Both the position numbers and the translations under genes were made by a program. Source: an uncultured Candidatus Saccharibacteria bacterium (GTDB lineage: Bacteria > Patescibacteriota > Minisyncoccia > Phycocordibacterales > JAACPR01). From it: a stretch of 64,000 nucleotides of DNA. Location: positions 34,435 to 98,434 of the forward strand of contig CAZIEY010000003.1 in the NCBI GenBank assembly GCA_964538855.1. The letters run 5' to 3'. Shown one piece after another: positions 35,835-55,186 of the stretch. The notes beneath the pieces are model-generated. The model saw nothing but the letters and a program-made list of their open reading frames with translations. It was not told the origin of the DNA and did not search any database. Numbering within the stretch: the stretch's first letter is position 1; the number at the start of each line of letters is the position of its first letter.

Positions 35835-36962
35835 TTAGTTACTCGACTTAATCTCTACGAGCACCCCATTTCTCACCTCGAATATTTTTACTGGTGTCTT
35901 TGCAACGGTGTGTTCTGAAGTAATTTCAAATCGTCCATTAAGCGTTTCGAATGAATGTGTTTCTATGTATGCCGGCACATCTTTTTTGTCGCTAGTATGT
36001 GCAATTGCTTCGGCAAGCATATAGATCGAATCGTAACTTTTATTAGCACCTCGTCGTGGCATTTCTCCGTATTTCGCAAAAAATGCTTTGCTAAATTCAT
36101 CAGATGGAATTTCCCAGTCGATCATGAGCGCACCTTCGAGATCTGCCTTATCTAACTCTTTGTTATTCACCACGTCGCGTAGTGTGGTATAACCGATAAT
36201 TGGTTTTGTGAAGCCGAGATTTTTTGCAATACTGAGGTACTTGATAATATCGAAATCGAGCATATCAAGAAACACCGCATCCATTTCCTCGTCTTTAATT
36301 TTTAAAACATTTGTTCGGAAATCACTCGTGCCTATACCCAAGTAAGTTTCAGTAATGAGAGGTGTGCTATTAACTTTTTTCATAATTGTCTCGAGCGTAG
36401 TTTGAATAGACTTAGAAAATCCAGACTCAAAACGAATCATACCAAGGTGTTGGATATTTCTGTCTCGAATGACACTCTCTAGTTCACTAATGACTTCGTC
36501 AAATTTTGGATACATGACAAAAGAGTACGAATTCATCTCAAGTGTCTCATCAATCGCAAAATTAACCGGTGACACGAGTGTGATTTGATTTTGCTCTGTG
36601 ATCGGAATGAGGGGTTGCAACGTGAAATCAAATATTCCGCCAATCACCGCGCTTACATTATTAACGTCGACCAATTTACGATACGCTGACAGGGAAGTTT
36701 TCGGATCAGTTGCGTCATCTTCAATTGAAAGTTCTACGAGTCTACCATTTACACCACCTCTCGTATTAATTTCATCGACTGCCATTTCCATCGCTTTTTT
36801 GGACATCGCACCGAAATCAGCTGCTACACCAGTCAGGGAAATAGATGCACCGATTTTAATAGGGGAGTTGTTCGCGACCTTAACATTTTTGTTGTAATTA
36901 AAAGCAAATCCAATAATTAGCACAACCGCAATCACCGCAATAATTTTGTTTATTTTTGTCAT
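35835..36962 (-). CDS. LivK-like (type I PBP, HAAT family) substrate-binding protein, paralog 1 of 7
   Basis: N-terminal TM anchor; 'IKIGASISLTGVAADFGAMSKKAMEMAVDEIN…YRKLVDVNNVSAVIGG'. Confidence 0.75.
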   Translation of the reverse strand: MTKINKIIAVIAVVLIIGFAFNYNKNVKVANNSPIKIGASISLTGVAADFGAMSKKAMEMAVDEINTRGGVNGRLVELSIEDDATDPKTSLSAYRKLVDVNNVSAVIGGIFDFTLQPLIPITEQNQITLVSPVNFAIDETLEMNSYSFVMYPKFDEVISELESVIRDRNIQHLGMIRFESGFSKSIQTTLETIMKKVNSTPLITETYLGIGTSDFRTNVLKIKDEEMDAVFLDMLDFDIIKYLSIAKNLGFTKPIIGYTTLRDVVNNKELDKADLEGALMIDWEIPSDEFSKAFFAKYGEMPRRGANKSYDSIYMLAEAIAHTSDKKDVPAYIETHSFETLNGRFEITSEHTVAKTPVKIFEVRNGVLVEIKSSN

Positions 36963-37020
36963 AATTTTTTATCTATTGCACATCATGCTACCTCATGGTA
37001 TATTAATTGTACATTATTCG

Positions 37021-37031
37021 TCGAATTTCGA
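37021..37031. promoter_or_regulatory. Palindrome tcgaa-t-ttcga in the divergent SBP/TrmB intergenic region (candidate operator)
   Basis: Seen directly in the sequence between 36962 and 37049. Confidence 0.3.
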
Positions 37032-37048
37032 AAAATAACCATAAAGTC

Positions 37049-37843
37049 ATGACAAATATACAAACTACTTTGGAAGGTCTTGGCATCAAGGGAACTGCCC
37101 AGACAGTTTTTAGTTATCTTGTTGAAAACGGCGTTTCGCCAGTTGCAAAAATTGCCTCAGGAATTCGCACTCCAAAATCTTCCATTTACAGCGCACTCGA
37201 AGAATTGGGTTCAATGGGTTTGATTATCGAATACAGTGAAAATCGAAGCAAAGAATATGGCATCATCGACGAGCAGCAACTCAAAGATTTGATTGATCAG
37301 CAAGTTCGCAACATGAAATCACATGAAAAAGCGCTGCTCGATTTTATGCAAAACTCTCATCAAAGTTCGCAAACAATCAAACCGAAAATCAAATTTTATA
37401 CTGGTATCGAGGGTATTCGCCAATCGTTTCGTGACATGCCTTGGCATAAAAATTGTAGAGAGACATACGTGATGTGGTCGACGAAAGACATGGTCGATAT
37501 TTTGACGCCCGAATTTAGCGAGTGGCACAGCTCGAAAAGATTGAAATATAAAATTATGCTTAATGCTATTCGTAAATACTCTGACAGAGCCATGAACGAC
37601 GATCCACAGAATAAAAAGTTGTTGCAAAGCGAAGCTTGGACTGCCCAGAGAGAAGTGCGATATGCTCCAAAAAATACTGAATGGACCATGAGCTATTGGA
37701 TTTATGGCGACAAGTGCCATTTTTCGAGTGGCGCTGGCGAAAAGTTTGCTTTCATTATTCATAGTCAGGAATTTGCCGATCTTATGCTTGTTTTGTGGCA
37801 AAATATATGGAAAGTTTCGACCCTCGATTTTGTGGCGAAGTGA
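37049..37843 (+). CDS. TrmB-family transcriptional regulator (wHTH + C-terminal ligand domain), paralog 1 of 5
   Basis: 'LEGLGIKGTAQTVFSYLVENGVSPVAKIASGIRTPKSSIYSALEELGSMGLI' is a TrmB-type wHTH. Confidence 0.6.
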   Translation: MTNIQTTLEGLGIKGTAQTVFSYLVENGVSPVAKIASGIRTPKSSIYSALEELGSMGLIIEYSENRSKEYGIIDEQQLKDLIDQQVRNMKSHEKALLDFMQNSHQSSQTIKPKIKFYTGIEGIRQSFRDMPWHKNCRETYVMWSTKDMVDILTPEFSEWHSSKRLKYKIMLNAIRKYSDRAMNDDPQNKKLLQSEAWTAQREVRYAPKNTEWTMSYWIYGDKCHFSSGAGEKFAFIIHSQEFADLMLVLWQNIWKVSTLDFVAK

Positions 37844-37881
37844 GTTTGCTTTCACGCTGGGGCAATAGTAATATTGTATAT

Positions 37882-39006
37882 ATGAAAAAAGCAATATGGG
37901 GAGCAGTAATTTTAATAGTAATTGTGCTTTTAGTGGTTTCTAATAAGAAGGACAATAGCGATAAAGGACCAATTAGAATTGGTTTTATTTCACCATTATC
38001 AGGTGACGCTGCATCATATGGTGATCCAGTTAAAAAGGGTGTTGAAATTGCCGTCGATGAAATTAATATGAAGGGTGGCGTTGATGGGCGACCATTCGAA
38101 GTCATTTATGAGGATGGTAAATGTAACAATAAAGACGCGACTAGTGCCGCTCAAAAATTGATTTCAATCGATAAGGTTAAAGTTATTATTGGTATGATAT
38201 GCAGTGGTGAATTATTGTCTGCTGCACCAGTTGCTGAAACTGCAAAAGTTATTTTGATTGGTCAAGGCTCGAGCCCAGATATTACAAAGGCCGGCGATTA
38301 TATCTTTAGAACTTTCCCGAGTGATTCTCAGGTTGGTGTGGCTCTTGTCGATCACATGCTTACAAAGAAGTTTGAGAAAGTTGCTGTGGTATCTGGCAGT
38401 TCCGCATACTCAATTGGTTTGAAAAACTTTTTCCTTGATGTAGCGAAGGAAAAGAATCTCGATGTTGTTTTTTCAGAAGATACTCTTGCTGATACGGTTG
38501 ACTTTAGAACTATTTTACAAAAAGTTAAAGTCACAAATCCATCTGCTTTGTTTGTAAATCCACAAACTGGGCAGGCAGCAGCTCGTATGGTTGAGCAGGC
38601 AAGAGCGTTAGGAATTAACTCCCAATTCTACGGAGCTTACTTTACAGGACCGGAATTTATCAAGATCGGTGCGGCAGTAGAAGGGACATTTATTGCAGAT
38701 GCACCTTCGCTTGATTCTTCAAACCCACGAATCGTCTCATTTAAGGAAGCAACACAAAAGAGATATGGTTCAGAACCTGATTACCTATTCTTTGGAGCAA
38801 ATGCGTACGATCAGGTGTATTTAACCGCGGCCATGTTTAAAGAGGTTGGTACTGAAAACACTGATAAAATGAAAGCGTGGTTATATGGAGTTAAAGATTT
38901 TGACGGTATTTCTGGCAAATTTGGTTTCGATTCAAATGGTGATGTGACAGGGATTAGTATGCGATTGGTCCAGGTAAAGAATGGAGAAATCGTACCTGCT
39001 CAGTAG
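37882..39006 (+). CDS. LivK-like substrate-binding protein, paralog 2
   Basis: 'IRIGFISPLSGDAASYGDPVKKGVEIAVDEINMKGGVDGRP…AQKLISIDKVKVIIG'. Confidence 0.75.
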   Translation: MKKAIWGAVILIVIVLLVVSNKKDNSDKGPIRIGFISPLSGDAASYGDPVKKGVEIAVDEINMKGGVDGRPFEVIYEDGKCNNKDATSAAQKLISIDKVKVIIGMICSGELLSAAPVAETAKVILIGQGSSPDITKAGDYIFRTFPSDSQVGVALVDHMLTKKFEKVAVVSGSSAYSIGLKNFFLDVAKEKNLDVVFSEDTLADTVDFRTILQKVKVTNPSALFVNPQTGQAAARMVEQARALGINSQFYGAYFTGPEFIKIGAAVEGTFIADAPSLDSSNPRIVSFKEATQKRYGSEPDYLFFGANAYDQVYLTAAMFKEVGTENTDKMKAWLYGVKDFDGISGKFGFDSNGDVTGISMRLVQVKNGEIVPAQ

Positions 39007-39030
39007 GATAGTGTTGTATAATAGTCAGGC

Positions 39031-39903
39031 ATGTCCTCAATCATCCCGCAACTCATCGTCAATAGTATCATCGCTGGCTCGATTTATTCGCTCGTGGCGC
39101 TCGGCTTCAATTTGATTTTTGGAGCGACCAAGTTTTTCAATTTGGCGCACGGAGTGATTGTGACGATTGGTGGTTACGGCGTCTTTTTCTTGTCAAAGCA
39201 GATGGGGCTTGATGTCTCTCTTTCGATTTTTATTTCGGTCATTTTTGCGGGTCTCGTCGGTTACGCCACCGAAAAATTGATTTTCCAAAAGATGCGTAAT
39301 AAAAAAGCTTCGGGCATGATTATGCTCGTGGCGTCGCTTGGTCTTTTGACGGCGATTCAGGCGATTGTCGCAATTCTTTTCACGAGCCAATTCCAGACCC
39401 TCTCACGCAACGTCGGAACGACCCGCGTCTACGAAATTGGCGGAGGTATTATCACACAAGTGCAGCTCATCATTTTGTGTACCTCGATTGCGATTATGGT
39501 GGTGCTCGGTCTCGTCATCAAGAAAACAAAATTCGGCAAGGCAGTCCAAGCAATCGGTGACGATGTAGAGGTCGCAAAGATCGTCGGTATCAACACGAAT
39601 AAAATTATCGGATATGTATTTTTCATTGGATCTGCTATTGCGGGAATTGCCGGTATTGCGGTTGGTTTTGACACTGGACTCGAGCCTGTCATGGGCTTGA
39701 ACCTGCTTTTGAAAGGCGTCATCGCATCAATTATCGGTGGTGTGGGTAGCGTGTCCGGTGGAGTTCTCGGCGCGTTTCTGCTCGGTTTCGTCGAAAACTT
39801 CGGTATTTGGAAAATTTCCGGTGAATGGAAAGATGCAATTGCGTTCGGGCTTCTCATTATCTTTTTGATTTTTAGACCTGATGGGATTTTTAAGAGGAAG
39901 TAA
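39031..39903 (+). CDS. livH: Branched-chain amino acid ABC transporter permease LivH-like
   Basis: 'NSIIAGSIYSLVALGFNLIFGATKFFNLAHG' is typical of LivH. Confidence 0.8.
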   Translation: MSSIIPQLIVNSIIAGSIYSLVALGFNLIFGATKFFNLAHGVIVTIGGYGVFFLSKQMGLDVSLSIFISVIFAGLVGYATEKLIFQKMRNKKASGMIMLVASLGLLTAIQAIVAILFTSQFQTLSRNVGTTRVYEIGGGIITQVQLIILCTSIAIMVVLGLVIKKTKFGKAVQAIGDDVEVAKIVGINTNKIIGYVFFIGSAIAGIAGIAVGFDTGLEPVMGLNLLLKGVIASIIGGVGSVSGGVLGAFLLGFVENFGIWKISGEWKDAIAFGLLIIFLIFRPDGIFKRK

Positions 39904-40005: not shown

Positions 40006-40542
40006 GTGTTTAATAAAGATGAGATTAACTCTAATAAGACAGGTCGTCTTGGAATTTTTATCGATGAAGCGAATTTGTATTATTCCCAAAAAACTTTGGG
40101 ATGGAAAATAGGGTACGAGGAGTTAAAGAATTATTTATCTGTTGGTACGGCTTCTCAATTACGAATATATATCGCCACTGTGAAAAATGGATTGAGTCAG
40201 ACAAATTTATTAAATAAATTAAAGAATTTAGATTTTACAATTATCTCTAAAAACCTTAAATTAATTAAGGCTTTAAATAGAGACTTGATTTCAAAGGGTA
40301 ATTTAGATATCGAACTCGCACTAGACGCGTATATACTAAAAGATTCTTTCGACACATTTGTTTTATTTTCAGGAGATTCGGATTTTGCGTATCTCGTTGA
40401 TTTACTTAAAAAAGAAGGTAAAAAGATAATTACATTTTCTACGAAGGAACATATTTCTAGAGAATTAATCACTCGTAGTGATTTGTATGTAGATTTGAGA
40501 AAATTGCGGAGCGAATTGGAATATCTTACGTCTGATGTATAA
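40006..40542 (+). CDS. NYN-domain (LabA-like/DUF88, PIN-like) protein, paralog A
   Basis: Acidic core motifs 'GIFIDEANLYY', 'DIELALDAY', 'LFSGDSDFAYLV'. Own -10 (TATAAT at 39984-39989). Confidence 0.65.
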   Translation: MFNKDEINSNKTGRLGIFIDEANLYYSQKTLGWKIGYEELKNYLSVGTASQLRIYIATVKNGLSQTNLLNKLKNLDFTIISKNLKLIKALNRDLISKGNLDIELALDAYILKDSFDTFVLFSGDSDFAYLVDLLKKEGKKIITFSTKEHISRELITRSDLYVDLRKLRSELEYLTSDV

Positions 40543-40552: not shown

Positions 40553-40580
40553 CTGCAAGTTTTGGCTCGCAGGATTCCTG
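40553..40580 (+). terminator. Hairpin (8-bp stem aatcctgc/gcaggatt, 12-nt loop) after the NYN gene; weak T tract
   Basis: Seen directly in the sequence. Followed by TGTATAAT at 40612-40619, which overlaps the livM start. Confidence 0.35.
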
Positions 40581-40617
40581 TTTGTAACGCTCGTATATTA
40601 TAGCAACCTATTGTATA

Positions 40618-41505
40618 ATGTCAAACATGGAATATTTCATACACCTCGGCATATTAATCGCGATTTGGTCCATCTTGGCCTTCAGCTTGAACTTGGTTAT
40701 TGGCTACACTGGCCTGTTGTCGATTACGCACGCGGCATTTTTTGGAATCGGTGCGTACGGAACCGCGATCCTAATGACGGAGCATGACTGGAACTTTTTT
40801 ATGGCGGCACTCATCGGCGTAATTGTCTCGATGATTCTTGCGGGCATTTTCGGCATGATTTTGGGGCGCTTCAAGGGCGATTATTATGCGCTCGCCTCGT
40901 TCGGATTCAACATCATTGTGTTTAGTGTCTTCTTGAACTGGCAAGAACTGACTCGCGGACCTCTCGGCATTCCGGGCATTCATCGTCCAGAAATTGATCT
41001 CGGATTTTTTGATTTTGTGTTCAAGTCAAACATCAGCTTCCTCATTCTCGCCGCATTTACCGCGTGGATTGTGTACGTGATTTCGTGTTATATCGTTGAT
41101 TCTTCGTTCGGGCGCGTGCTCAAGGCGATTCGTGAGGACGAGCAGGCGATTTCGGTGTTCGGTTACAATACCGCCGTGTATAAAATGTTTATTTTCGTCA
41201 TCAGCGCAGGCCTCGCCGCGGTTGCAGGTGCACTCTTTGCGACATACATTACGTTCATCGATCCTTCGACATTCAGTCTCTCCGAATCGATTTTCATTCT
41301 CGCGGTTGTCATTCTCGGAGGTCTCGCCAATCACAAGGGCGTTTTCTGGGGCACAGTCTTTCTCATCCTTTTGCCCGAAATTTTGCGCTTCGTCGGCTTC
41401 CCGACAGACATCGCAGCCCAAATGCGCCAAGTCGTCTACGGTGTACTGCTCGTCGTTTTGATGATGTACAGACCGAATGGGTTGATGGGGGAATATAAGT
41501 TGTAG
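40618..41505 (+). CDS. livM: Branched-chain amino acid ABC transporter permease LivM-like
   Basis: 'LNLVIGYTGLLSITHAAFFGIGAY' is typical of LivM. The start may instead be the second ATG at 40627 (possibly leaderless). Confidence 0.8.
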   Translation: MSNMEYFIHLGILIAIWSILAFSLNLVIGYTGLLSITHAAFFGIGAYGTAILMTEHDWNFFMAALIGVIVSMILAGIFGMILGRFKGDYYALASFGFNIIVFSVFLNWQELTRGPLGIPGIHRPEIDLGFFDFVFKSNISFLILAAFTAWIVYVISCYIVDSSFGRVLKAIREDEQAISVFGYNTAVYKMFIFVISAGLAAVAGALFATYITFIDPSTFSLSESIFILAVVILGGLANHKGVFWGTVFLILLPEILRFVGFPTDIAAQMRQVVYGVLLVVLMMYRPNGLMGEYKL

Positions 41506-41512
41506 AGACAAA

Positions 41513-42289
41513 CTAGGAGTTATTTTTTACAGGTAGAGAAGTGGGTTCAAGCGATTTCCAAATATACATAAACAGTTTGGTCAACATATCTGCCACGATT
41601 TTCGATTCGATAATAATTGAATAAGGTTCATTTTCTTTGAAAGAGAAGAAGTATGTTGTATCACCAATCACATTCATTGAACCACCGAATGCACTATTAT
41701 CAATGATTTCTCGAGTTTCTCGGAACTCGTCAGTTTTATAGTGCTCATTTTTCAGTATGTCTTTTGGTCCAATGAGATACGTAAAAGCTTTTGTTAATTT
41801 ATTTTTTCTTTTTCGCCACTCTGGAAAAAATCTGGGCAAGATATTTATTAAGTCAGATTCGAATACTGAATATACCAATTTGGTCTTATTTTTAATCATG
41901 GTATCGAGATTGTGTTCAAAAGTTTGTTTCAAACCTTCTACACCGACGAATATTTTCGTTTTTGGATTATCTTTATCCAGCTTATACATATTAGAAAGGT
42001 CGCCAAATATTTCGTTTAGTATGATTTCTTTATTTTTTAAAATTTGTTTTAAGCGATCTGGATTTTCAGCAGAGTAGTGAATTACATTATTTTTCTTCCA
42101 ACTCGAGACTAGTCCTTGAGACTCTAATTCCAATAGTAAGTTGTAAACAGTGGTTCTCGGAATCTTTGTGCCAGTTGCGACTTTATATACTGGTATATCT
42201 CTGTTTCTCAATAGAAACGTATATATTTGGGCAGATTTCTCACTAACACCGATTTCCGATAGTTTTTTAGATATGTCTTTCATATTCAT
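41513..42289 (-). CDS. TrmB-family transcriptional regulator, paralog 2
   Basis: 'LSEIGVSEKSAQIYTFLLRNRDIPVYKVATGTKIPRTTVYNLLLELESQGLV'. Confidence 0.6.
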   Translation of the reverse strand: MNMKDISKKLSEIGVSEKSAQIYTFLLRNRDIPVYKVATGTKIPRTTVYNLLLELESQGLVSSWKKNNVIHYSAENPDRLKQILKNKEIILNEIFGDLSNMYKLDKDNPKTKIFVGVEGLKQTFEHNLDTMIKNKTKLVYSVFESDLINILPRFFPEWRKRKNKLTKAFTYLIGPKDILKNEHYKTDEFRETREIIDNSAFGGSMNVIGDTTYFFSFKENEPYSIIIESKIVADMLTKLFMYIWKSLEPTSLPVKNNS

Positions 42290-42292
42290 ATA

Positions 42293-42311
42293 CTGTCATA
42301 TAAATGGACAG
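42293..42311. promoter_or_regulatory. Inverted repeat ctgtc-N9-gacag in the divergent TrmB/SBP intergenic region
   Basis: Seen directly in the sequence. Confidence 0.3.
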
Positions 42312-42437
42312 CAGTAAATGGGTATTTAAATATGGAATATAAGGTTAAATCGACCGCAGATTAATTATAGTGGTATTTTAGTGACATAAAGTCTCGCTCG
42401 GTATATCATTGTGAGTAATTATAAGTAATATAAATTT

Positions 42438-43487
42438 ATGAACAAAAAATACCTTACGGGTCTTGTCGTTGTCATTTTGATTGTAGGCTTTTTTATATTT
42501 TCTAACAGGGATACAGACACAATTAAGATTGGTGTAGTTGCCCCTCTAAAATCTGGCGCAACAATTTACGGCGATAACTTGGTTAAAGGGTTAGAGCTCG
42601 CCAAGAAAGATCTGGGTGATCGTGCGGCGAATTATGAAATCATTGTCGAAGATGATGAGGGTAACATTGCAAAATCTGCTTCCGCCGCACAGAAATTAAT
42701 TAACATCGATAAGGTCGCTGCTATTGTTACGGTAACTTCCGGAACTGGTAGCGCGGTAGATAAAATTGCAAAAGATGCGGGAATTCCTCACATCTGCGAT
42801 TGTGTGGTGACTACCATTGCTGGTGAGACGACATTTTTGTATAGTGCTCTTCCACAAGATGAAGCAAAACGCTGGTTAGAAGAAGCTAAAAACCAGAATC
42901 TTTCAAAAGCTTTTTTGATTATTCAAAATCAACCAGGCGCGAATTTGTTGGGTGAGGAGGTCAAGAATCATGCTCGAGATTACGGTATTACTATTGTAGG
43001 TGAAGAAAGAATTGATCCAGCCAATAAAGATTTTCGAACCGAGGTTTCTAAGATGAAGCTTGTACCGGCTGATATTTATATGACTATTGTATTTCCTCCG
43101 ACACTTGATATTTTGGCTAGAGAGATGACTTTGCAACAGATTACTAATTTCAGCTCGAATGGTCTTTTGGCCATTACAGCCGACCTCTCTTTGTTTGAGG
43201 GTCAGTGGTATACCGATAACTTCCTCTCAGATGTTGCATACCAGGCGCAATTTACTAAAGAATACCCAAACACTCGATTTAACGCGCGAACCGCACCGCA
43301 CGGATACGACATATTCAATTTGATTGTACGTGGAACCGAATCTGGTAATCTTGCTGAATATCTCAAAAATTTGAACGAGTATGACGGTAAAGTCGGCAAG
43401 GCTGTGAAAGGTGAAAACAAAAATATTTTCACTTTGCCAATTGGGATTTGGACAGTGAAAGACGGGAAGACTGTGTTAGTGAAGTAG
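42438..43487 (+). CDS. LivK-like substrate-binding protein, paralog 3
   Basis: 'IKIGVVAPLKSGATIYGDNLVKGLELAKKDL…AQKLINIDKVAAIVT'. Confidence 0.7.
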   Translation: MNKKYLTGLVVVILIVGFFIFSNRDTDTIKIGVVAPLKSGATIYGDNLVKGLELAKKDLGDRAANYEIIVEDDEGNIAKSASAAQKLINIDKVAAIVTVTSGTGSAVDKIAKDAGIPHICDCVVTTIAGETTFLYSALPQDEAKRWLEEAKNQNLSKAFLIIQNQPGANLLGEEVKNHARDYGITIVGEERIDPANKDFRTEVSKMKLVPADIYMTIVFPPTLDILAREMTLQQITNFSSNGLLAITADLSLFEGQWYTDNFLSDVAYQAQFTKEYPNTRFNARTAPHGYDIFNLIVRGTESGNLAEYLKNLNEYDGKVGKAVKGENKNIFTLPIGIWTVKDGKTVLVK

Positions 43488-44294: not shown

Positions 44295-44312
44295 TGAAAT
44301 AAGTATATAAAA

Positions 44313-44329
44313 TGACTAAAAATTAGTCA
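44313..44329. promoter_or_regulatory. Palindrome tgacta-N5-tagtca in the TrmB/cupin divergent region
   Basis: Seen directly in the sequence. Confidence 0.3.
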
Positions 44330-44478
44330 ATATAATATATTAAAAAACCTTTACCTAGCAACATTAGAATATAATTACAGCATAAAAATATACTTTGACA
44401 AGACATTATTAAGGTTGTCTGGTATTCTTTTTGTAGGTCGTAATATATTGTGAAAATCAAGTGAATGGCCTGTAAATT

Positions 44479-44958: not shown

Positions 44959-44981
44959 AAATACACATAACTTATATAAAA

Positions 44982-46073: not shown

Positions 46074-46081
46074 AGATCTAG

Positions 46082-46140
46082 AAGAGGTTATAACAAAAAG
46101 AAGGTTCATAATTTGAATCTTCTTTTTGTTATAACCTCTT
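46082..46140. repeat. 22-bp perfect inverted repeat (15-nt loop) between convergent genes; bidirectional terminator-like
   Basis: aagaggttataacaaaaagaag / cttctttttgttataacctctt. Confidence 0.65.
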
Positions 46141-46692: not shown

Positions 46693-46714
46693 ATAAATAA
46701 TAATAACATTAAAT

Positions 46715-47512: not shown

Positions 47513-47520
47513 ACTAAATT

Positions 47521-48672
47521 ATGTCAAATAACAATATGAAAAAATATACATGGGGAATCATAGCGGTGCTTGTGTTGGGTGCGATATTCGTGATGAATAA
47601 TCGTCCGGCAAAAGACGTGTCTGGTGAGCCAATTAAAATCGGCAGTATTTCTGCTTTAACTGGAGCAGGCTCTGCAATTGGTGAAGCAGAACGTCGCGGT
47701 GCGCAACTTGCCATCGACGAAATCAATGAGAATGGCGGAGTCTTGGGTCGACCTTTGCAATTAATTTCTGAGGACGTTTCAATTGATAAAATTAAAAATG
47801 CCGTGACGGTAACTCAAAAACTTATCAATATAGACAAAGTTATTGCGATTGTTGGTCCGCAATGGGATGAGCCGGCAGAACCGATTTTGCCTTTAATTGA
47901 AGCCGCAAAGATTCCTATGGTTGGTCCAGACACGTCTGATCAACTTGAAAAAGATACGAATTACGATTACTTTTTCTCGACATGGTATGACAATCGAGTC
48001 GGTATTCGTGAATTATTGCGATACGCTCAAAGAGAAAATATAAAAGAGTTTACAATTATTCGGTTGCTAGATGCGAGCTTTTGGAAGTTTACAGCTGACA
48101 TATTTACGAACGAAGCTCCGAATTATGGCGTGAAAATTGTCGATGATATTAATCTTGGAAATCCTTTGGTTCAAGACTTCAGAACAGTTATTACAAAAAT
48201 TAAAAGTCAAAAATCAGAGGCTGTGTTTGTGGTAACAAGCGATTACAATCAATGTACACTGTTAAAGCAAATGGACGACCTCGCGCTCAACGTACTTTCT
48301 TTTGGAACCGAATCGTCTGGCGACAGTGTGTCGCTTACTAATTGTCCGCAATCTCTAGAACGACGTGTATTCAGTACTCCAGTTAAAACAAAAAGCCAAA
48401 TTGAATTCGAGGAGAAGTTCGAGGCAAAATATGGTTCCAAGCCAGAATATCCTTCGATTGTAACTGCGTATGATGCGGTACGTGTGATTGCTGATGCCTT
48501 GCGTCGATCAAAATTGGAGGGAGGTGAAGCATTACAAAAAGCAATTGCTGAAACCAATATGCCAGGTGCAGCGGTGCCGGTGATTAAATTCAACGAGAAG
48601 GGTTTTCTTCAAACTCCAGAAGATGCGTTTGAAATGAAGACGGTGCGAGAAGGTGAGTTCGTACAGATTTAG
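47521..48672 (+). CDS. LivK-like substrate-binding protein, paralog 5
   Basis: 'IKIGSISALTGAGSAIGEAERRGAQLAIDEINENGGVLGRP…TQKLINIDKVIAIVG'. An alternative start lies at 47536. Confidence 0.7.
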   Translation: MSNNNMKKYTWGIIAVLVLGAIFVMNNRPAKDVSGEPIKIGSISALTGAGSAIGEAERRGAQLAIDEINENGGVLGRPLQLISEDVSIDKIKNAVTVTQKLINIDKVIAIVGPQWDEPAEPILPLIEAAKIPMVGPDTSDQLEKDTNYDYFFSTWYDNRVGIRELLRYAQRENIKEFTIIRLLDASFWKFTADIFTNEAPNYGVKIVDDINLGNPLVQDFRTVITKIKSQKSEAVFVVTSDYNQCTLLKQMDDLALNVLSFGTESSGDSVSLTNCPQSLERRVFSTPVKTKSQIEFEEKFEAKYGSKPEYPSIVTAYDAVRVIADALRRSKLEGGEALQKAIAETNMPGAAVPVIKFNEKGFLQTPEDAFEMKTVREGEFVQI

Positions 48673-48673: not shown

Positions 48674-49480
48674 TTATTTCTGCGCCGCACCTTTCCACGA
48701 TAACTCAAAAATCATGCGCATCATGTCATGGATAGCCTTATCTTGGATAATAGTACCTGTCATTGAATCTGGATTGAGGTTTACAATTGAAATTTTGTCT
48801 TCACCGTACACAGTGATTTCTCCGTGGACCAAAAATTGATCCTTGGATACAAAACGTAATTCGGGCCAGTATTTTTCTGAGACACCAATTTGTTTGTATT
48901 TCTCTAATATAAATGCCGAGCCGTGATCTGAAGCCGGCACAATGCCTCTTGTGTGTATACGCTTTTTCTCTTTTGCTTTACGATATGTCACAGATAATTC
49001 GTGCTGCATAAAATTCTCGAGGTATTCCGTGTTAGACCACGCCAACATTTCGTATGGCTTTTCAACATTAATATGATCCTCGAATACTTTGAGGATGCCA
49101 TCGAAACCTTCGAAATAGGTAACTTTCTGTTTGTGCGCACTGAATGCGTAAATACTTTCGAGTGTTGGTATGGTGCTCTCGGCTTTCTCTAATTGATCTT
49201 GAGAAATTTTCACACGATCTTTGAGATAGCGGGTGATGCGTTGTGGATGTTCGACATGGTAAAAAATTTTATTTTTCTTTTCTATTTCATTAACCAAACC
49301 TTTGACGGATAAATCCAAGAGGATTTTATATACTGTGCTGCGATTGATTTTTGTCACCTCAGCAATTTTGGAAGGGTAGGCACCACCGAGATGGAGCAGT
49401 GCTGAATATATAGAAGCTTCTTTATCGGTTAGACCAAGTTTATTGAGTTTACTCTGTATGCTTGATTGCGATGTTTCCAT
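48674..49480 (-). CDS. TrmB-family transcriptional regulator, paralog 5
   Basis: 'LNKLGLTDKEASIYSALLHLGGAYPSKIAEVTKINRSTVYKILLDLSVKGLV'. Confidence 0.6.
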   Translation of the reverse strand: METSQSSIQSKLNKLGLTDKEASIYSALLHLGGAYPSKIAEVTKINRSTVYKILLDLSVKGLVNEIEKKNKIFYHVEHPQRITRYLKDRVKISQDQLEKAESTIPTLESIYAFSAHKQKVTYFEGFDGILKVFEDHINVEKPYEMLAWSNTEYLENFMQHELSVTYRKAKEKKRIHTRGIVPASDHGSAFILEKYKQIGVSEKYWPELRFVSKDQFLVHGEITVYGEDKISIVNLNPDSMTGTIIQDKAIHDMMRMIFELSWKGAAQK

Positions 49481-49494: not shown

Positions 49495-49520
49495 AAGAAT
49501 TGGTAAAACTGTCAATTCTT
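49495..49520. promoter_or_regulatory. Inverted repeat aagaattg-N10-caattctt in the TrmB/SBP divergent region
   Basis: Seen directly in the sequence. Confidence 0.3.
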
Positions 49521-49656
49521 ACGAACAAAATATGCAACATATCTTTTATACGTTGATAAATAAGAATATATAATGCTTGATATGTTATTAAAAAATACAG
49601 CACTGAGTTTTCATTGTATAGTATTTCACGTAGATATTACAAATAAGCATTATTAT

Positions 49657-50736
49657 ATGAAAAAAACATTATACGTGGTGGCTGCTCTCGTGATACTTGC
49701 GGGTATATATACAACATTCTCATCAAAAAATGTTGCTACAGATAAGCCTGTAAAAATCGGAGTTGTATTACCACTCTCTGGCGGAGCAGCGTTTTTAGGA
49801 GAATCTGCACAAAGAGCAGCACTACTCGCTCTTAAAGATGCAGGCGATACGAAATACGATTATGAATTAGTTATAGATGATGATGGGTTCAATCCGATCA
49901 ATACAGTTACTGTGGTTAACAAGTTGATTAATATTGATAAAGTCCTCGGCATCATCACTTTTGGTTCTGGTACAAGTAACGCAGTTGCGCCAATTAATGA
50001 AGGGGCTAAGGTTGCTCGATTCGGCTTGGCGTCGGATCCGACTTCTGCAGAAGGAAAATATAATTTCGTTCACTGGACACCTCCGTTTAAGGAAGGGGCT
50101 TTATTAGCGCAAGAAATTGTAAAACGCGGTTATAAGACGGTATCGATTATTGATACAGATCATGCGGGTACACTCGCTGTTACGAATGCTATAAAAGATT
50201 CACTGAGGGACACCGAAGTTAAAATTGTGTCATACGATATGACAAAAATCGGCGATAAGGATTTTAGAACAATCGCCGCAAAGATTAAAAACTTACAACC
50301 AGATTTGATTATTTTAGAAATGTTCACCCCTGAAAATGAATTGATGGCACGGCAACTCAGAGATCTTGGGATACATATTCCACTGACGAGCGTAGAAACT
50401 TTTGAATGGAGCAATGAGCCGACATTATTCAACGGAATGTGGTTTGTATCTGATGGAAGAAAGAATCCGGATTTTGTGGATAGATACACTAAAGAATATG
50501 GAACAGGACCAGAAACTGGCTCGACGTATGTGTATGATTTGGTTGCAATGATGATTCGATTACAAGAAGAATCCAATACACGAATTGACCCTACAGATCT
50601 TCCTGAAATTATTATGCAGAAAGGATATAACGATTCTCCATTGTATGGAAAGACAGTTATCGATAAAGACGGATTCTTTGTGACAGAAGCTTCGGTGAAG
50701 AAGATTGTCGATGGTAAAGCGGTGCAGGTAGAATAA
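49657..50736 (+). CDS. LivK-like substrate-binding protein, paralog 6
   Basis: 'VKIGVVLPLSGGAAFLGESAQRAALLALKDA…VNKLINIDKVLGIIT'. Start at MKKTLYV. Confidence 0.7.
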   Translation: MKKTLYVVAALVILAGIYTTFSSKNVATDKPVKIGVVLPLSGGAAFLGESAQRAALLALKDAGDTKYDYELVIDDDGFNPINTVTVVNKLINIDKVLGIITFGSGTSNAVAPINEGAKVARFGLASDPTSAEGKYNFVHWTPPFKEGALLAQEIVKRGYKTVSIIDTDHAGTLAVTNAIKDSLRDTEVKIVSYDMTKIGDKDFRTIAAKIKNLQPDLIILEMFTPENELMARQLRDLGIHIPLTSVETFEWSNEPTLFNGMWFVSDGRKNPDFVDRYTKEYGTGPETGSTYVYDLVAMMIRLQEESNTRIDPTDLPEIIMQKGYNDSPLYGKTVIDKDGFFVTEASVKKIVDGKAVQVE

Positions 50737-50775: not shown

Positions 50776-50806
50776 TGATTGACATACACAATCCATCGTA
50801 TATACT

Positions 50807-51091
50807 ATGGATATGAAAACGATGGTAAACATAAAGCTTGATAAAAAGCTTAAAAATCAAGCCTCAAAATTAGCGGAACAAATGGGGTTTAATCTCTCAT
50901 CGATTATTTCTGCGACACTTCGACAATTTGTGGTAAACAAGGAAATCAGTATTTCTCTCAAACCCAAAATGACTCCTTATTTAGAATCGATTATTTCGGA
51001 TGTTAAAAAAGAAAGACAATCGGACAAATCTCCAGTATTCAAAAATGCCACAGAGGCTATTGCGTGGTTGAGACGGCATGTGAAGTCATAA
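50807..51091 (+). CDS. dinJ: DinJ/RelB-family antitoxin (type II toxin-antitoxin system)
   Basis: 'VNIKLDKKLKNQASKLAEQMGFNLSSIISATLRQFV' parallels DinJ 'RIDEDLKNQAADVLAGMGLTISDLVRITL'. Confidence 0.65.
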   Translation: MDMKTMVNIKLDKKLKNQASKLAEQMGFNLSSIISATLRQFVVNKEISISLKPKMTPYLESIISDVKKERQSDKSPVFKNATEAIAWLRRHVKS

Positions 51092-51102
51092 CACAAATTC
51101 AT

Positions 51103-51363
51103 ATGCAAATTATATTCAGTAAAAAGTTTATAAAAGCATATGAAAAGGTTTCTCCTTCCATTCAGAAGAAATTCGACAACCGATTAACTTTATTTTGCAA
51201 AGACCAGAATAATAAAATACTCAATTGTCATGGACTGCATGGTACATATGCTGGATATTTTAGTTTCAACGTAACCTCGGATTATCGAGCGATATTTGAA
51301 TATGTGAATAGTGATAAAATTGAATTAATTACGATCGGGACACATGCACAGTTGTATAAATAA
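51103..51363 (+). CDS. yafQ: YafQ/RelE-family mRNA-interferase toxin
   Basis: 'MQIIFSKKFIKAYEKV…LHGTYAGYFSFNVTSDYRAIFEYVNSDKIELITIGTHAQLY' fits the YafQ/RelE family. Lies 11 nt after the antitoxin. Confidence 0.6.
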   Translation: MQIIFSKKFIKAYEKVSPSIQKKFDNRLTLFCKDQNNKILNCHGLHGTYAGYFSFNVTSDYRAIFEYVNSDKIELITIGTHAQLYK

Positions 51364-51400
51364 TGTATTTTTTTGTTATAATACATTCACCACACAATCC

Positions 51401-52135
51401 ATGCCAATTCTTCAGCTCAAAAACTTCGCAAAGCATTTCGGTGGCGTCAAAGCCGTCTCGGGTGTCGACTGTTCCATTGAAGCGGGGAAAATCACAGGGC
51501 TTATCGGGCCGAACGGGTCAGGGAAATCGACGCTCATTAATTTAGTGACGGGAATTATTCCAAAGGACAAGGGAGTGCTCGTGATTAGCGACGCGGTGCA
51601 CGTCGAAAAAATTCGTCCGTGTGATATGCGAGAATACAAAATTACGCGCACGTTTCAAAACGTTCGTGTGTTCGAACAAATGTCGGTGCTCGATAATATC
51701 ATGCTCGCTTTGACGCATCGCAGCATGTGGCGCACTTTGTTTGAGCGTAACACAAAAATTTATCTTGACCGCGCCGAAGATATTTTGAAATTAATCGGCA
51801 TTCACGAAAAACGACATGAACAAGCCCTGAGCTTGTCATATGGTCAGCGCAAGTTGCTCGAAATTGGACGTGCGATTGCAACTGACGCCGATATTATTTT
51901 GTTTGATGAACCGTACGCAGGACTCTTCCCAGAGATGATTAAAAAAGTTTCCGACATTTTGAAAAAGTTGCGCGAGGAGGGCAAGGCAATTGTTCTTGTC
52001 GAACACAACATGGAAATTATTCGCGACCTCTGCGATCATCTTGTTGTGATGGATTCCGGAACTGTGCTTGCCGAAGGTGACCCGAAAACCGTGCTCGCGC
52101 GACGGGATGTGGTGGAGGCGTATTTGGGGGAGTAA
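51401..52135 (+). CDS. livG: Branched-chain amino acid ABC transporter ATPase LivG-like
   Basis: Walker A GPNGSGKST, signature LSYGQRKLLEIGRA, and a LivG-type C-terminus. Start at MPILQL. Confidence 0.8.
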   Translation: MPILQLKNFAKHFGGVKAVSGVDCSIEAGKITGLIGPNGSGKSTLINLVTGIIPKDKGVLVISDAVHVEKIRPCDMREYKITRTFQNVRVFEQMSVLDNIMLALTHRSMWRTLFERNTKIYLDRAEDILKLIGIHEKRHEQALSLSYGQRKLLEIGRAIATDADIILFDEPYAGLFPEMIKKVSDILKKLREEGKAIVLVEHNMEIIRDLCDHLVVMDSGTVLAEGDPKTVLARRDVVEAYLGE

Positions 52136-52218
52136 TTTTGACTTCTCCTGAGAAAATTCTAAAGAAACCCTAAAGTTTTTTGTAGCTTTACCCAATAATA
52201 TATGGATATAGTATTTGA

Positions 52219-52725
52219 GTGAAACACAACATCGCACTGATCGATGGTCAAAATCTACACCTCGGCACAACGCGTAGTGATAATCTGTGGTCTGTTGATT
52301 TTACAAAATTCAGAATATATTTGAGGGATAAATATAATGTTACTGAAGCCTATTATTTTCTTGGGTATTGGGATGAAAAACATCAAAAACTATACAGCAA
52401 TTTAGAAGCTGCTGGTTTTACCATTATTTTTAAACCACATCACAAAAATTCGCCGACTATCAAGAGGGGAAATGTTGATGCCGATATTATTTTTGAAATG
52501 ATGAAGAATATGTGTGAGGATCCAAATTCGGGCAAAATAATTTTGGTTTCCGGCGATGGTGATTATATGAAAGTTGTCGATTATGCCATCAGCAAGAGTA
52601 AATTAGAGAAGATTTTATTTCCAGATAGAAAAAGGGCGTCGTCGTTGTATCGGTCATTACCATTGAATTTTTGGAATGATTTAAGTGATACACTTATAAA
52701 AACCAAGATCGCGTTCCTAAAATGA
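52219..52725 (+). CDS. NYN-domain (LabA-like) protein, paralog B
   Basis: 'IALIDGQNLHLG', 'NVDADIIFEM', 'LVSGDGDYMKVV'. Confidence 0.65.
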   Translation: MKHNIALIDGQNLHLGTTRSDNLWSVDFTKFRIYLRDKYNVTEAYYFLGYWDEKHQKLYSNLEAAGFTIIFKPHHKNSPTIKRGNVDADIIFEMMKNMCEDPNSGKIILVSGDGDYMKVVDYAISKSKLEKILFPDRKRASSLYRSLPLNFWNDLSDTLIKTKIAFLK

Positions 52726-52856
52726 AAAAGCCTCCTTAGGCAATTAACCGTTCGGATGCTTTTTCGTCGTGATACCCCATAATTATAAGAAAATTGATGG
52801 GGAAGTCAAGCGGAAATTTTTTTGACTTCCTCCTCCCGAAGAGTAAAATAGGAAGT

Positions 52857-53987
52857 ATGAAAAAATCAGTAATAATCGTAGTTATCGTATTGATACTTGG
52901 TGGTCTGTATTTTAGTAATAAACAACCTCAGGATACTTCAACAATTAAGATTGGTGGTAACTTTATCCTGTCTGGTTCTCAGGCTCTAGTTGGGGAATTA
53001 CAGAAAAATGCCACAACGATGGCAATCGAAAAGATTAACAGTGATGGCGGTATCAATGGAAAGAAACTCGAATTAGTTCTCGAGGATAGTGCCTATGACT
53101 CTAAGACTAGTTTGAATGCATACAAAGCTCTTTCGGTAAGAGGGATTAATTACATTATTGCTGATGGTAGCCCCGTTGTTTCGAGTATTAGGGAAGTAGC
53201 CGTGAAAGACGGTAATGTATTGATTGTGCCGGGCGCCACAACCCCAACCTATTTCGATGGTTCAAATTTATCATGTCGCATTGCACTTACTGCAAAAACC
53301 CTCGCTCCGGCATTTGTTGAATTGATGAAAAAGAGTGGGTATAAAAAGGTGGCAACATTATTACCTGATAATGAATACGGTAGGGGTGTGGCTAGTGAAT
53401 TGCATAAAAATATTGACAGTATCAGCGGAGAAATTGTCATCGAGGAATTTTATAACGCAACACCGGGTGCAAATGATTATAGAACCAATATTCTTAAAAT
53501 AAAGGGAGAACAAAACAATATCGACACTGTTATTGCGGTACAAGTGGCTAATACAGTTGAGGCGATGCTTGGTCAAATTAAAGAAGTAGGTCTAATGAAA
53601 CCAATCATCAGTGATTATTACACTGTACAAAATCCTGCTTTGAAAAATCTTGCTCTTGCTAATAATGTTGATTATGTTGATTATGAGTACTCTCGAGATG
53701 GTTCTGTTACAGAAAGCGATATAACTAAAAAGTTTAAACAGGATTACAAAGACAAATTCGGCTCGAATCCTGTGTATTTAGCTGCAGCGCATTATGACGT
53801 TGTTAACATTCTCGCACATGCATTACGAGAAGTTGGAGATAATCCACAAAAAGTCGCTGATTATATTAGCTCAATGAAAAATTACCAAGCTGTTACTGGT
53901 ACATTATCATTTGATGATGATTGTGAAGTAGAGCGCGCTACAGTATTTAGAACTGTAGTAGATGGAAAAATTATAGATTTACCGTAA
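52857..53987 (+). CDS. LivK-like substrate-binding protein, paralog 7
   Basis: 'IKIGGNFILSGSQALVGELQKNATTMAIEKINSDGGINGKK'. GGAAG SD. Start at MKKSVII. Confidence 0.7.
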   Translation: MKKSVIIVVIVLILGGLYFSNKQPQDTSTIKIGGNFILSGSQALVGELQKNATTMAIEKINSDGGINGKKLELVLEDSAYDSKTSLNAYKALSVRGINYIIADGSPVVSSIREVAVKDGNVLIVPGATTPTYFDGSNLSCRIALTAKTLAPAFVELMKKSGYKKVATLLPDNEYGRGVASELHKNIDSISGEIVIEEFYNATPGANDYRTNILKIKGEQNNIDTVIAVQVANTVEAMLGQIKEVGLMKPIISDYYTVQNPALKNLALANNVDYVDYEYSRDGSVTESDITKKFKQDYKDKFGSNPVYLAAAHYDVVNILAHALREVGDNPQKVADYISSMKNYQAVTGTLSFDDDCEVERATVFRTVVDGKIIDLP

Positions 53988-53991
53988 ATTT

Positions 53992-54441
53992 ATGGAAAAA
54001 CCTCATCAGGAATCATACATGCGAGATGTGTTGAGTGATTTTTCAGATAGCACATTATCTGATTGGCTTTCGAAAGAAAATCTGCGAGATAAACCGACAC
54101 GAGTGTTTGAAGGATTTGAAATTACTGCCTCGATTGACGGCAATATTGTTCCTAATCGAGAAGTTTCATTGGTAAAGTTACGATCTGGGGTTGCATACCC
54201 ACAACATGTTCATAAAAATTCTGATGCATATGTTGTTATTGTAAGTGGCGAGGCAGTATTGCTCAGTGGAACTAAGGAAACACCGCTAGTATCAGGGGAT
54301 AAAATACAAATACCTCGTGGTATGCCGCACGGATTTAAATTAGCAGAAGGTCAGGTGTTGGAATTTATCTCCATACAATCTCCACCAATTAGAGACCCGA
54401 AATCTGGTGAAGAGGATTTACATCTAACAGATTTGGTTTAA
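53992..54441 (+). CDS. Cupin-domain protein, paralog B
   Basis: 'AYPQHVHKNSDAYVVIVSGEAVLL…IQIPRGMPHGF'. Confidence 0.6.
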   Translation: MEKPHQESYMRDVLSDFSDSTLSDWLSKENLRDKPTRVFEGFEITASIDGNIVPNREVSLVKLRSGVAYPQHVHKNSDAYVVIVSGEAVLLSGTKETPLVSGDKIQIPRGMPHGFKLAEGQVLEFISIQSPPIRDPKSGEEDLHLTDLV

Positions 54442-54460
54442 GTTTTGCTATAATATATCA

Positions 54461-55186
54461 ATGCAACCAAAAGAAACTCTGCTCACGTTTCGCGACATAA
54501 AAGTCCACTACGGCGGTGTAAAAGCGCTCGATGGTGTTGATGTGACGCTCGATGAGGGCGAGATTGTGGCGCTTATGGGGCCAAACGGCGCGGGGAAGTC
54601 GACTATTTTGAAGGTCTTGTTCGGGCTCGCGCCAATCAGCGCTGGTCATATCTATTGGCACGGCGTTTCAATTGTGCCAAAATCGTTTGAAATTGTTGAA
54701 CGCGGAATTGCTTTTGTGCCACAGGGGCGTCAGCTTTTTAAAAGTCTCAGTGTTCTCGAAAATTTGGAGATGGGTGGATTTTCAATCAACAGCCGTGCCG
54801 TTCTCAAAAATCGAATTAACGAAGTGCTCGATATTTTTCCAGCACTGCGTCCGAAATTGCATGAGCCGGCTCGAAATTTGTCCGGTGGTCAACAACAAAT
54901 GGTGGCGATTGCACGCGGACTCGTGTCTGATCCAAAAATTTTGCTTCTCGACGAACCGTCACTTGGCCTCTCTCCGAAAATTGTCAAAGAGGTGTTTGCA
55001 AAAATTAAAGAAATTAACGAGCGCCGTAAAACCTCGATTATGATTGTCGAACATAATTTGCATTCAGTGCTCGGCATTGCCGACCGCGCATACGTCTTGG
55101 ACAAAGGTGTTGTCGCCATGCAGGACAAGCCGGCCGCGATTTTGTCATCTGGTATTTTAGAAAAAGTTTTCTTGGCTCGACGATAA
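54461..55186 (+). CDS. livF: Branched-chain amino acid ABC transporter ATPase LivF-like
   Basis: Walker A GPNGAGKST, signature LSGGQQQMVAIARG, ~240 aa LivF architecture. Confidence 0.8.
   Translation: MQPKETLLTFRDIKVHYGGVKALDGVDVTLDEGEIVALMGPNGAGKSTILKVLFGLAPISAGHIYWHGVSIVPKSFEIVERGIAFVPQGRQLFKSLSVLENLEMGGFSINSRAVLKNRINEVLDIFPALRPKLHEPARNLSGGQQQMVAIARGLVSDPKILLLDEPSLGLSPKIVKEVFAKIKEINERRKTSIMIVEHNLHSVLGIADRAYVLDKGVVAMQDKPAAILSSGILEKVFLARR

Follow-up and report, generated by a model that had tools for sequence, protein, structure and literature searches.

One LIV-type translocator, seven binding proteins and five TrmB-like regulators interleaved in a patescibacterial gene array

Gene content of the array

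The DNA considered here is a stretch of 64,000 nucleotides (hereafter the window) from contig CAZIEY010000003.1 of an uncultured patescibacterial genome (GCA_964538855.1), and its positions 35835-55186 hold the genes of a HAAT-type ABC transporter dispersed among genes for binding proteins and regulators. According to the open reading frame (ORF) map and Pfam, this array comprises a single livH, livM, livG and livF, seven substrate-binding proteins (SBPs) of the Peripla_BP_6 family and five winged helix-turn-helix (wHTH) regulators, which bears out the inventory given by the first-pass annotation, i.e. one livHMGF set, seven SBPs and five regulators of ~260 aa. With leftward genes marked by a minus sign, the order is SBP1(-), REG1, SBP2, livH, NYN1, livM, REG2(-), SBP3, REG3(-), CUP1, SBP4, GNAT(-), REG4(-), SBP5, REG5(-), SBP6, RelB, YafQ-like, livG, NYN2, SBP7, CUP2 and livF. 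The five divergent regulator/SBP pairs lie where that annotation had placed them, with a cupin gene intervening in the REG3 pair. Its further claim that each of the seven SBPs is wired to a regulator of its own holds for five of them, but not for SBP2, which is 3' of REG1 on the same strand and has no regulator to itself, nor for SBP7, which has no regulator. All ORFs of the array are intact. The window, which has a GC content of ~40%, agrees letter for letter with a Logan assembly contig (SRR13208906), and the closest relatives of its proteins are found in metagenome-assembled genomes (MAGs) of Patescibacteria (the candidate phyla radiation, CPR), under Parcubacteria/Paceibacteria-type labels.

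The translocator genes encode two BPD_transp_2 permeases and two ATPases, one LivG-like with a BCA_ABC_TP_C domain and one LivF-like, each present once in the window, and this is the complement expected of a HAAT/LIV system. The livH-type permease (39031-39903, + strand; E 1e-41) has its best NCBIfam matches in UrtB (133.2 bits) and LivH (125.9 bits), both under cut-off, and the best NCBIfam match of the livM-type permease (40618-41505, +; E 7e-44) is LivM. The livG-type ATPase (51401-52135, +) combines ABC_tran with a BCA_ABC_TP_C tail, and the livF-type ATPase (54461-55186, +) matches ABC_tran with E 3e-33. A further permease pair was not found in the 64-kb window.

The seven binding proteins are SBP1 (35835-36962, -; Peripla_BP_6 E 2e-46), a HAAT-type protein with an N-terminal membrane anchor and the divergent partner of REG1, SBP2 (37882-39006, +; E 2e-61), SBP3 (42438-43487, +; E 9e-29), SBP4 (44982-46073, +; E 2e-29), SBP5 (47521-48672, +; E 5e-43), SBP6 (49657-50736, +; E 5e-37), the partner of REG5, and SBP7 (52854-53987, +; E 4e-43), which is tightly packed with CUP2 and livF as judged from gene spacing. 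PF13458 (Peripla_BP_6) spans the full length of all seven, and their PDB matches are LivJ, LivK and HAAT SBPs, as expected of type I (cluster B) proteins. Their N-termini carry a hydrophobic anchor and no lipobox, a lipobox-like motif occurring in 2 of 123 family members. The paralogues are ancient, being 18-25% identical to each other, and none of the seven reaches an NCBIfam equivalog cut-off. SBP2 is the most LivJ-like, its best PDB matches being 4gnr and LivJ 1z15 and its identity to LivJ-type proteins 25-30%. It keeps Tyr18, the Cys53-Cys78 pair, Ser79 and Tyr150 of LivJ and does not keep the ligand contacts Tyr202 and Glu226. Across the paralogues, pocket position 18 is occupied by F, Y, Y, A, I, L and V, and it is likely that their ligand specificities differ.

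All five regulators are built alike, combining a wHTH of TrmB type with a long helix and with a PLD-like domain that lacks the HKD motif. They are 258-272 aa long and 16-27% identical to each other, and four of the five pass the PF01978 (TrmB) cut-off. The best conserved class is that of REG5 (48674-49480, -), of whose family REG1 (37049-37843, +, on the same strand as SBP2-livH-NYN1-livM; PF01978 32.7 bits), REG2 (41513-42289, -; 38 bits) and REG4 (46715-47491, -; 35 bits) are full-length homologues according to hhalign, with probabilities of 96.4%, 99.3% (over 248 columns) and 96.1%, respectively. The divergent REG3 (43476-44294, -) has 16 bits only and stays below the PF01978 threshold. As a single sequence it gave no significant hhalign match to the REG5 family, and a profile-profile run matched the HTH only. 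Its orthologues carry PF01978, however, and its predicted structure (pLDDT 87.7) has the same fold as that of REG5 (pLDDT 91). The wHTH is thus present and of TrmB type throughout, as the first-pass annotation had supposed.

By sequence, only the first ~90-110 residues of the regulators are recognisable (PF01978, TrmB 3qph, TrmBL2 5bpd and AF2008). The recognition-helix tyrosine Y50 and PF01978 are features of the TrmB family (PMC4158304); the equivalent tyrosine is aligned in REG5, the column is tyrosine in REG1, REG2, REG4 and REG5, and in REG3 a tyrosine is offset by one position. TrmB itself joins the PF01978 DNA-binding domain to a PF11495 effector domain, while TrmBL2 and TrmBL3 (264 aa) are without its C-terminal ~70 sugar-binding residues (PMC4158304). 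In REG1-REG5, Pfam finds no match to PF11495, 2f5t is matched by the fold over its first half only (121-126 of 233 residues), and the proteins end after the PLD-like subdomain. They therefore have the TrmBL2-type design of ~264 aa, with a wHTH plus PLD-like domain and no sugar-binding end, and they cannot sense a ligand in the maltose-binding way of TrmB. The first-pass annotation had remarked upon a mismatch between classically sugar-sensing regulators and an amino-acid-type transporter. This puzzle falls away, because the regulators have the shorter architecture.

The regulator family is large, amounting to 1,513 clusters at 50% identity (E <= 1e-30). Many polar residues of the C-terminal domain are invariant within the REG5 class and not between classes. 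A catalytic PLD/Nuc enzyme was ruled out, as the HxK(x)4D (HKD) motif is missing in 165 of 167 family members and the 2 matches are at unrelated positions. We also encountered family proteins of ~510, 650, 790, 930 and 1060-1080 aa (P0259, P0277, P0279, P0283 and others) with 3-7 stretches matching the regulator profile; in these, the 260-aa regulator seems to have been fused in tandem 2- to 4-fold.

Regulator-receptor pairing, candidate operators and cassette turnover

When one genome per GTDB species was scanned with the REG5 profile, 80 loci were obtained (cited below by their L numbers), whose ORFs were classed by phmmer and by hidden Markov models built from the window proteins. Pairing was counted over 160 regulator and 118 SBP genes from 83 related loci, an SBP being accepted if it had at least 300 aa and was the immediate divergent neighbour. 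Such divergent adjacency was found for 74 of the 160 regulator genes (76 if shorter SBP matches are included), as opposed to 14.0 ± 3.1, and at most 26, in 2000 within-locus shuffles of gene order, and 63% of the SBPs (74/118) are divergently paired with a regulator. The partners also vary together across genomes, a point that the first-pass annotation had proposed to check: regulator and SBP distances are correlated with r = 0.81 (74 pairs from 30 loci), compared to 0.21 ± 0.07 after within-locus re-pairing and with none of 2000 shuffles as high, and regulator clusters agree with SBP clusters at an adjusted Rand index of 0.85-0.87. The recurrent cognate pairs are REG5/SBP6, seen in 30 loci, REG1/SBP1, REG3/SBP4 and REG4/SBP5, and pairings are retained across genomes down to 45-60% regulator identity. 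Because the order in which REG3 diverges from a cupin-SBP unit is kept in L089 (57% identity), as it also is in L093, the cupin gene CUP1 (44479-44958, +; Cupin_2) is part of the REG3 cassette.

In L008, L009, L012, L046 and others, a REG5-type gene is divergent from a gene for a ~750-aa radical SAM/B12-binding protein (8 and 5 of 61 partners scanned) or for a class V aminotransferase. Since many members divergently adjoin genes of these two kinds, it is evident that the family has other recurrent partners as well. It is a regulator family of Patescibacteria in general, and the partner met most often is a HAAT SBP.

Each regulator gene is associated with a candidate operator, designated O1-O5, and each of the five is unique in the window. 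The most widely conserved is O5 (TGTTCGTAAGAATTGACA; 49510-49527, -), which overlaps the REG5 promoter (49515-49487; TTGACA-17-GATAAT) at its -35 and, with the TTT/AAA on its flanks, makes up an imperfect palindrome. Of 32 REG5-class loci, 31 have a match to its type, TGTYSGT-N5-KTGACA, that departs from it at no more than 2 positions and keeps a constant spacing to the start codon, and the 64-kb window has exactly one such site. O1 (ATTCGTCGAATTTCGAA; 37016-37032, +) is just downstream of the REG1 promoter-like site at 36977-37004, between the REG1 promoter and the start codon, and, as read from the sequence by eye, it overlaps the likely SBP1 promoter. Just before the start, 5 of 6 loci show the REG1-class element, of the type TTCGGCGAA-N3-CGAATA (in the window, TTCGTCGAATTTCGAA), the L002 excerpt ending inside the element. 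O3 (TTGACTAATTTTTAGTCAT; 44312-44330, -) covers the REG3 promoter (44330-44302) at its -35, and its type, TGACWA-N5-TWGTCA, is found in the window, L093, L089 (with N4) and L091 (whose sequence was assembled a second time as L092); a similar TTGACAA-N5-TTGTCA is present at the REG3-like regulator of L002. O4 is a palindrome (AACTCTGCATTATTGGAGAGT; 47456-47476, -) at the 5' end of REG4 that abuts the -35 of an SBP5 promoter-like site at 47476-47503 (+). Its type, ACTCTSC-N6-GGAGAR, is present in all five REG4-class loci and is non-coding in L007 and L061. O2 (CTGTCCATTTATATGACAG; 42293-42311, -), which resembles CTGTCC-N7-GGACAG, has a nearly identical counterpart in L007 only, one of the three other class members, and L023 and L070 carry other palindromes at the same position. 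SBP3, the partner of REG2, has a promoter-like site of its own at 42381-42409.

The O1, O3 and O4 types are conserved within their class and different between classes. Such class-distinct palindromes argue for regulators that are sequence-specific, mutually distinct and at least autoregulatory, with predicted DNA binding at O1-O5. In the spacers between REG5 and SBP6 (L014, L028, L071, L072, L074 and others), a second conserved element, GC-clamped and AT-rich (approximately CCYTATTTATARGG), is located 20-45 nt from O5 on the SBP side, and several of these spacers also have a TTGACR half-site just 5-7 nt upstream of the predicted SBP -10. Separately, a perfect palindrome (TGTCATACGATATGACA) at 50228-50244, within the SBP6 coding region, resembles the TGTC-N9-GACA of REG2-class promoters and may be due to chance.

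When examining the layout of related loci, a compact form, in which REG5 is divergent from (small ORF)-SBP-livH-livM-livG-livF, is found in L003, L004, L015 and L057, and we regard it as ancestral. Compact loci (L003 at 9380-9787, L004, L015 and L032) also share a conserved ORF of ~131-135 aa without a Pfam match between the REG5-type gene and the SBP gene. Among the 23 loci with at least two translocator genes, the translocator series is interrupted in 17, in 14 of these by genes for SBPs or regulators. The "exploded" operon thus recurs within this group and is not peculiar to one genome. The first-pass annotation had allowed that the arrangement might prove to be a widespread and already annotated operon type. 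The layout is indeed common in Patescibacteria MAGs, but no published description of it was found.

Two close relatives, L002 and L093, have a backbone in common that runs META/nitroreductase-ABC-F, SBP1 divergent from REG1, livH and livM, then REG5 divergent from SBP6, then livG. L002 (~82% nucleotide identity) has an SBP1 orthologue (80% identical) beside its REG1 orthologue, but it is without SBP2, NYN1 and the whole 41513-48619 block of three cassettes and has other cassettes elsewhere. L093, which likewise misses SBP2, has REG3 divergent from cupin-SBP4 directly after livM, plus other cassettes. Cassette content thus differs between close relatives, as the first-pass annotation had suggested should be looked at, and together with the recurrence of the regulator/SBP unit across genomes this supports its view that the array is modular and differs from a plain liv operon. 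For L002 (GCA_964412465.1), the gene calls of the protein collection at 10861-13003 miss livH and livM in favour of short opposite-strand ORFs; both genes are intact and 94% identical to those of the window.

The amino-acid identity to L002 is 99% for REG5, 93% for REG1, 94% for livH and livM and ~80% for SBP1 and SBP6, and the identity at third codon positions is 0.45-0.55 for the SBPs versus 0.62-0.69 for the backbone. The REG5 pair is a case in point, the regulator having 99% amino-acid and 79% third-position identity and its partner SBP6 having 79% and 45%. By these comparisons, SBPs diverge, or are replaced, much faster than their regulators. Furthermore, the segment 44265-46064 (the REG3 promoter region, the cupin gene and SBP4) is 88-100% identical to L093, in which the backbone has 72-78% nucleotide identity, and there is a sharp break at the start of REG3. 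SBP4 itself is 98% identical at the amino-acid level. This difference points to a recent lateral exchange of the cupin-SBP4 receptor unit without REG3. The cassettes are old classes that have been gained, lost and laterally exchanged among Patescibacteria. A recent in-place tandem duplication, which the first-pass annotation had brought into play, finds no support given the low paralogue identity, the exchange and the absence of repeats: no repeats common to the cassette borders were found across the array, and for this reason both a tandem-duplication and an integron-like origin were rejected, the latter also since the array has no integrase.

Accessory and neighbouring genes

Several genes of the array were absent from the list in the first-pass annotation, namely a RelB/YafQ-type pair, two NYN-domain genes, a second cupin gene and a GNAT gene behind REG4. 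NYN1 (40006-40542, +; PF01936 E 5e-23) lies between livH and livM; it is absent from the same site in L093, and L002 and L089 have a PemK toxin gene there instead. NYN2 (52219-52725, +; PF01936 E 7e-16) lies between livG and SBP7. Near-consensus sigma-70 promoters are located just 3' of both NYN genes and directed back into them (40597-40624, -, 12/12; 52782-52809, -, 11/12). These may drive antisense RNAs, and a hairpin at ~40560-40590 separates the former promoter from NYN1. NYN-domain genes also occur no more than 10 kb from REG5-type genes in ~18 of the 80 loci, some of them without any SBP (L005, L016, L021, L025, L028-L030, L032, L036, L042, L046-L048, L059, L069, L070, L075 and L082).

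The toxin-antitoxin pair at 50807-51363 consists of a RelB-type antitoxin (50807-51091, +) and a YafQ/ParE-type toxin (51064-51363, +), and according to a promoter scan it has its own promoter-like site at 50779-50806. Toxin-antitoxin genes are found within other liv arrays as well, often between translocator genes (PemK/ParD in L002 at 11824-12042 and 19865-20086, and L089 at 3449-3832), and such modules seem to use the liv array as a landing place.

The second cupin gene, CUP2 (53992-54441, +; Cupin_2), precedes livF. Directly downstream of REG4 is the gene of a GNAT acetyltransferase (46129-46692, -; Acetyltransf_1; 187 aa in the public record), and between it and SBP4 there is a long hairpin (46082-46140) whose 27-nt arms are 96% complementary, a two-way terminator for the two genes. 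Right after livF, at 55194-57711, follow genes for a YibE/F membrane protein (after a 7-bp gap) and for an ATP-grasp protein with an L-amino-acid-ligase C-terminal domain, both of which may be functionally linked to amino-acid uptake. A scan with Rfam returned five tRNAs only, all of them outside the array.

Proposed control of the array and its relation to known systems

Based upon these features, we propose that individual receptor genes are under the control of sequence-specific regulators that also regulate themselves, and that the receptors feed a single LivHMGF translocator in common, a reading to which we assign a probability of roughly 0.6. A single HAAT/LIV-type translocator (LivH, LivM, LivG, LivF) would be served by the seven membrane-anchored SBPs, presumably shared among all of them. 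Five of the SBP genes would be self-contained cassettes, each having a TrmB-family regulator, with its wHTH, dimerisation helix and PLD-like domain, divergent from its own SBP gene. As a dimer, each regulator would bind the palindrome of its class, located at the promoter or the 5' end of the regulator gene itself. Acting from the short intergenic region that both genes have in common, it would repress itself as well as the neighbouring SBP gene, repression being presumed here over activation. An effector bound to the PLD-like domain, most plausibly the imported compound or a product thereof, would relieve the repression. A given receptor would thus be made only when its substrate is present, and all receptors would dock on the one translocator. 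Two of the cassettes are also upstream of translocator genes (REG1, SBP2, livH and livM in one case; REG5 divergent from SBP6, then the toxin-antitoxin pair and livG through livF in the other).

Several observations weigh against this proposal. O2 and O5 are ~110 bp from the predicted SBP promoters, and no second copy of either motif was found on the SBP side, be it in the window or in the REG5/SBP6 spacers. O4 may instead be an RNA hairpin covering a GGAG ribosome-binding site, because its right arm reads GGAGAG. About half of the family members adjoin other genes (radical SAM/B12 enzymes, class V aminotransferases and small ORFs), co-variation proves co-inheritance and not functional matching, and the cupin-SBP4 unit was probably exchanged without REG3. 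The loci behind the pairing statistics were collected with REG5 as bait, so their frequencies are not an unbiased census. REG3-anchored look-ups in three independent genomes agree with the same pairing pattern, and a livM-anchored metagenome scan, meant as an unbiased sample, yielded 3 loci only and was not used. The effector is an assumption, because the sugar-binding part of TrmB is absent from these regulators and because TrmBL2, a solved protein built in the same way, shows no sequence preference in its DNA binding and no effector of it is known (PMC4158304). Finally, the 64-kb window is the visible portion of the genome, and a second translocator may exist elsewhere in it.

Alternatively, the regulators might be autoregulated and sense no small molecule, either as TrmBL2-like architectural proteins or as simple repressors, and might adjoin SBP genes only through co-travel, with SBP expression being essentially constitutive. 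They have the two-domain architecture of TrmBL2 and miss the sugar-binding part of TrmB (PMC4158304), the best conserved motifs are at the promoters of the regulators and not at those of the SBPs, and the SBP4 unit has moved without REG3. We nevertheless regard this as unlikely, if worth keeping in mind. The class-specific palindromes favour sequence-specific binding, unlike that of TrmBL2, and the polar residues of the C-domain that are invariant inside the REG5 class only are as expected for a specific pocket. Moreover, divergent pairing occurs at five times chance and persists between distant regulators, and two of the candidate operators touch predicted SBP promoters (O4 according to the promoter scan, O1 by the by-eye reading). 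Less probable still is that the SBPs do not all feed LivHMGF, some acting as sensors or surface receptors, e.g. for host-derived compounds or in signalling, and others working with transporters encoded elsewhere. The 18-25% identity among the SBPs and the 64 kb of genome in view leave room for such a division of roles, and SBPs are known that stimulate non-transporter receptors (PMC9602780). Yet SBP and translocator genes are interspersed and probably transcribed together, this interleaving recurs in many genomes, the cassettes encode no other membrane partner, and translocator sharing has precedents (PMC2978685). As for a common liv operon that selfish insertions (toxin-antitoxin, NYN) and decaying redundant paralogues have broken up, with no particular design, the RelB/YafQ pair and two NYN genes inside the array, the PemK and ParD genes at similar places in relatives and the unstable cassette content could all be cited in its favour. 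It is hardly credible in view of the intact ORFs, the persistence of the cassette classes across distant Patescibacteria and the strong constraint on REG5 (99% of amino acids kept with 79% of third positions) and on livH and livM (94% of amino acids).

The proposal of regulators that control individual receptors of a shared translocator can be extended, although in a form that we find doubtful as a whole. The PLD-like domain of a bacterial TrmB offshoot might have turned into a small-molecule sensor and diversified along with the HAAT SBPs, such that each compound would have a sensor inside the cell and a receptor outside. Cassettes, or their receptor halves, might then be swapped, and the split translocator operon might be switched on via the cassettes that precede it.

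To our knowledge, almost nothing is known of gene regulation or of imported compounds in Patescibacteria, which are reduced and largely uncultured. The cassettes supply concrete triplets of regulator, predicted operator and binding protein, and the identities of the ligands would reveal compounds that matter to these bacteria. Plug-in sensing of this kind, if true, would be a regulatory logic such as has not been described before for these poorly understood, host-dependent bacteria, and it would lead directly to the compounds that they take up. A small genome would widen its substrate range cheaply in this manner, at ~2 kb per new receptor plus switch as opposed to a whole transporter. Synthetic biology might find orthogonal parts in the operator/regulator sets. 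The TrmB family makes up ~0.5% of bacterial transcription factors (PMC9426492), and five members are present here in 19 kb. Our literature searches returned no description of the cassette arrangement and no paper in which TrmB is connected with Patescibacteria, CPR, Saccharibacteria or Parcubacteria.

Among known systems, the nearest parallels on the transport side are the LivJ/LivK proteins of E. coli, both of which use one LivHMGF complex. In the Bra system of Rhizobium (BraDEFG with BraC), the orphan SBP BraC3 likewise uses the Bra translocator (PMC2978685). Like the array described here, these are HAAT importers with two permeases, two ATPases and more than one SBP per membrane complex. 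The present array differs from both in its seven SBPs, in the private divergent regulators of five of these and in translocator genes that are scattered between cassettes. On the regulatory side, TrmB of Thermococcus litoralis and Pyrococcus furiosus represses a trehalose/maltose ABC-transporter operon via a palindrome at the promoter of the SBP gene, from which the sugars that are transported release it (PMC4158304). It too is a wHTH protein of the TrmB family within an ABC-transporter cluster, and PF01978 and the PLD-like first half of its effector domain are shared with the regulators here. In contrast, the host in our case is bacterial, the transporter is of the HAAT and not the sugar (CUT1) type, the C-terminal ~70 sugar-binding residues are missing, the palindromes are unrelated to TACTN3AGTA, and there are many paralogous regulators per locus (five for seven SBPs in the window).

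The likeness to TrmBL2 and TrmBL3 is limited, at the sequence level, to the N-terminal ~110 residues. Whereas TrmBL2 of the Thermococcales is an abundant chromatin protein that occupies DNA within and between genes and follows no clear motif, the present regulators have class-specific palindromes and specific neighbour genes, and these candidate operators and fixed gene partners argue against a sequence-independent coating of DNA. The polysaccharide utilisation loci of Bacteroidota, in which each surface binding module comes with a sensor/regulator dedicated to it and the substrate range is widened by multiplying and exchanging such units, offer a parallel by analogy only; the proteins and the transport mechanism are unrelated, and each unit there has its own transporter. 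The use of several SBPs by one translocator (LivJ/LivK; BraC3, PMC2978685) and a TrmB regulator inside an ABC-transporter cluster (PMC4158304) were already known. The parts of the array and their comparative pattern are solid, and on good grounds we infer the regulatory mechanism. What is new is the combination itself: a bacterial TrmB offshoot devoid of the sugar domain and having class-specific candidate operators, one-regulator-per-receptor cassettes interleaved with a translocator, and the turnover of these cassettes.

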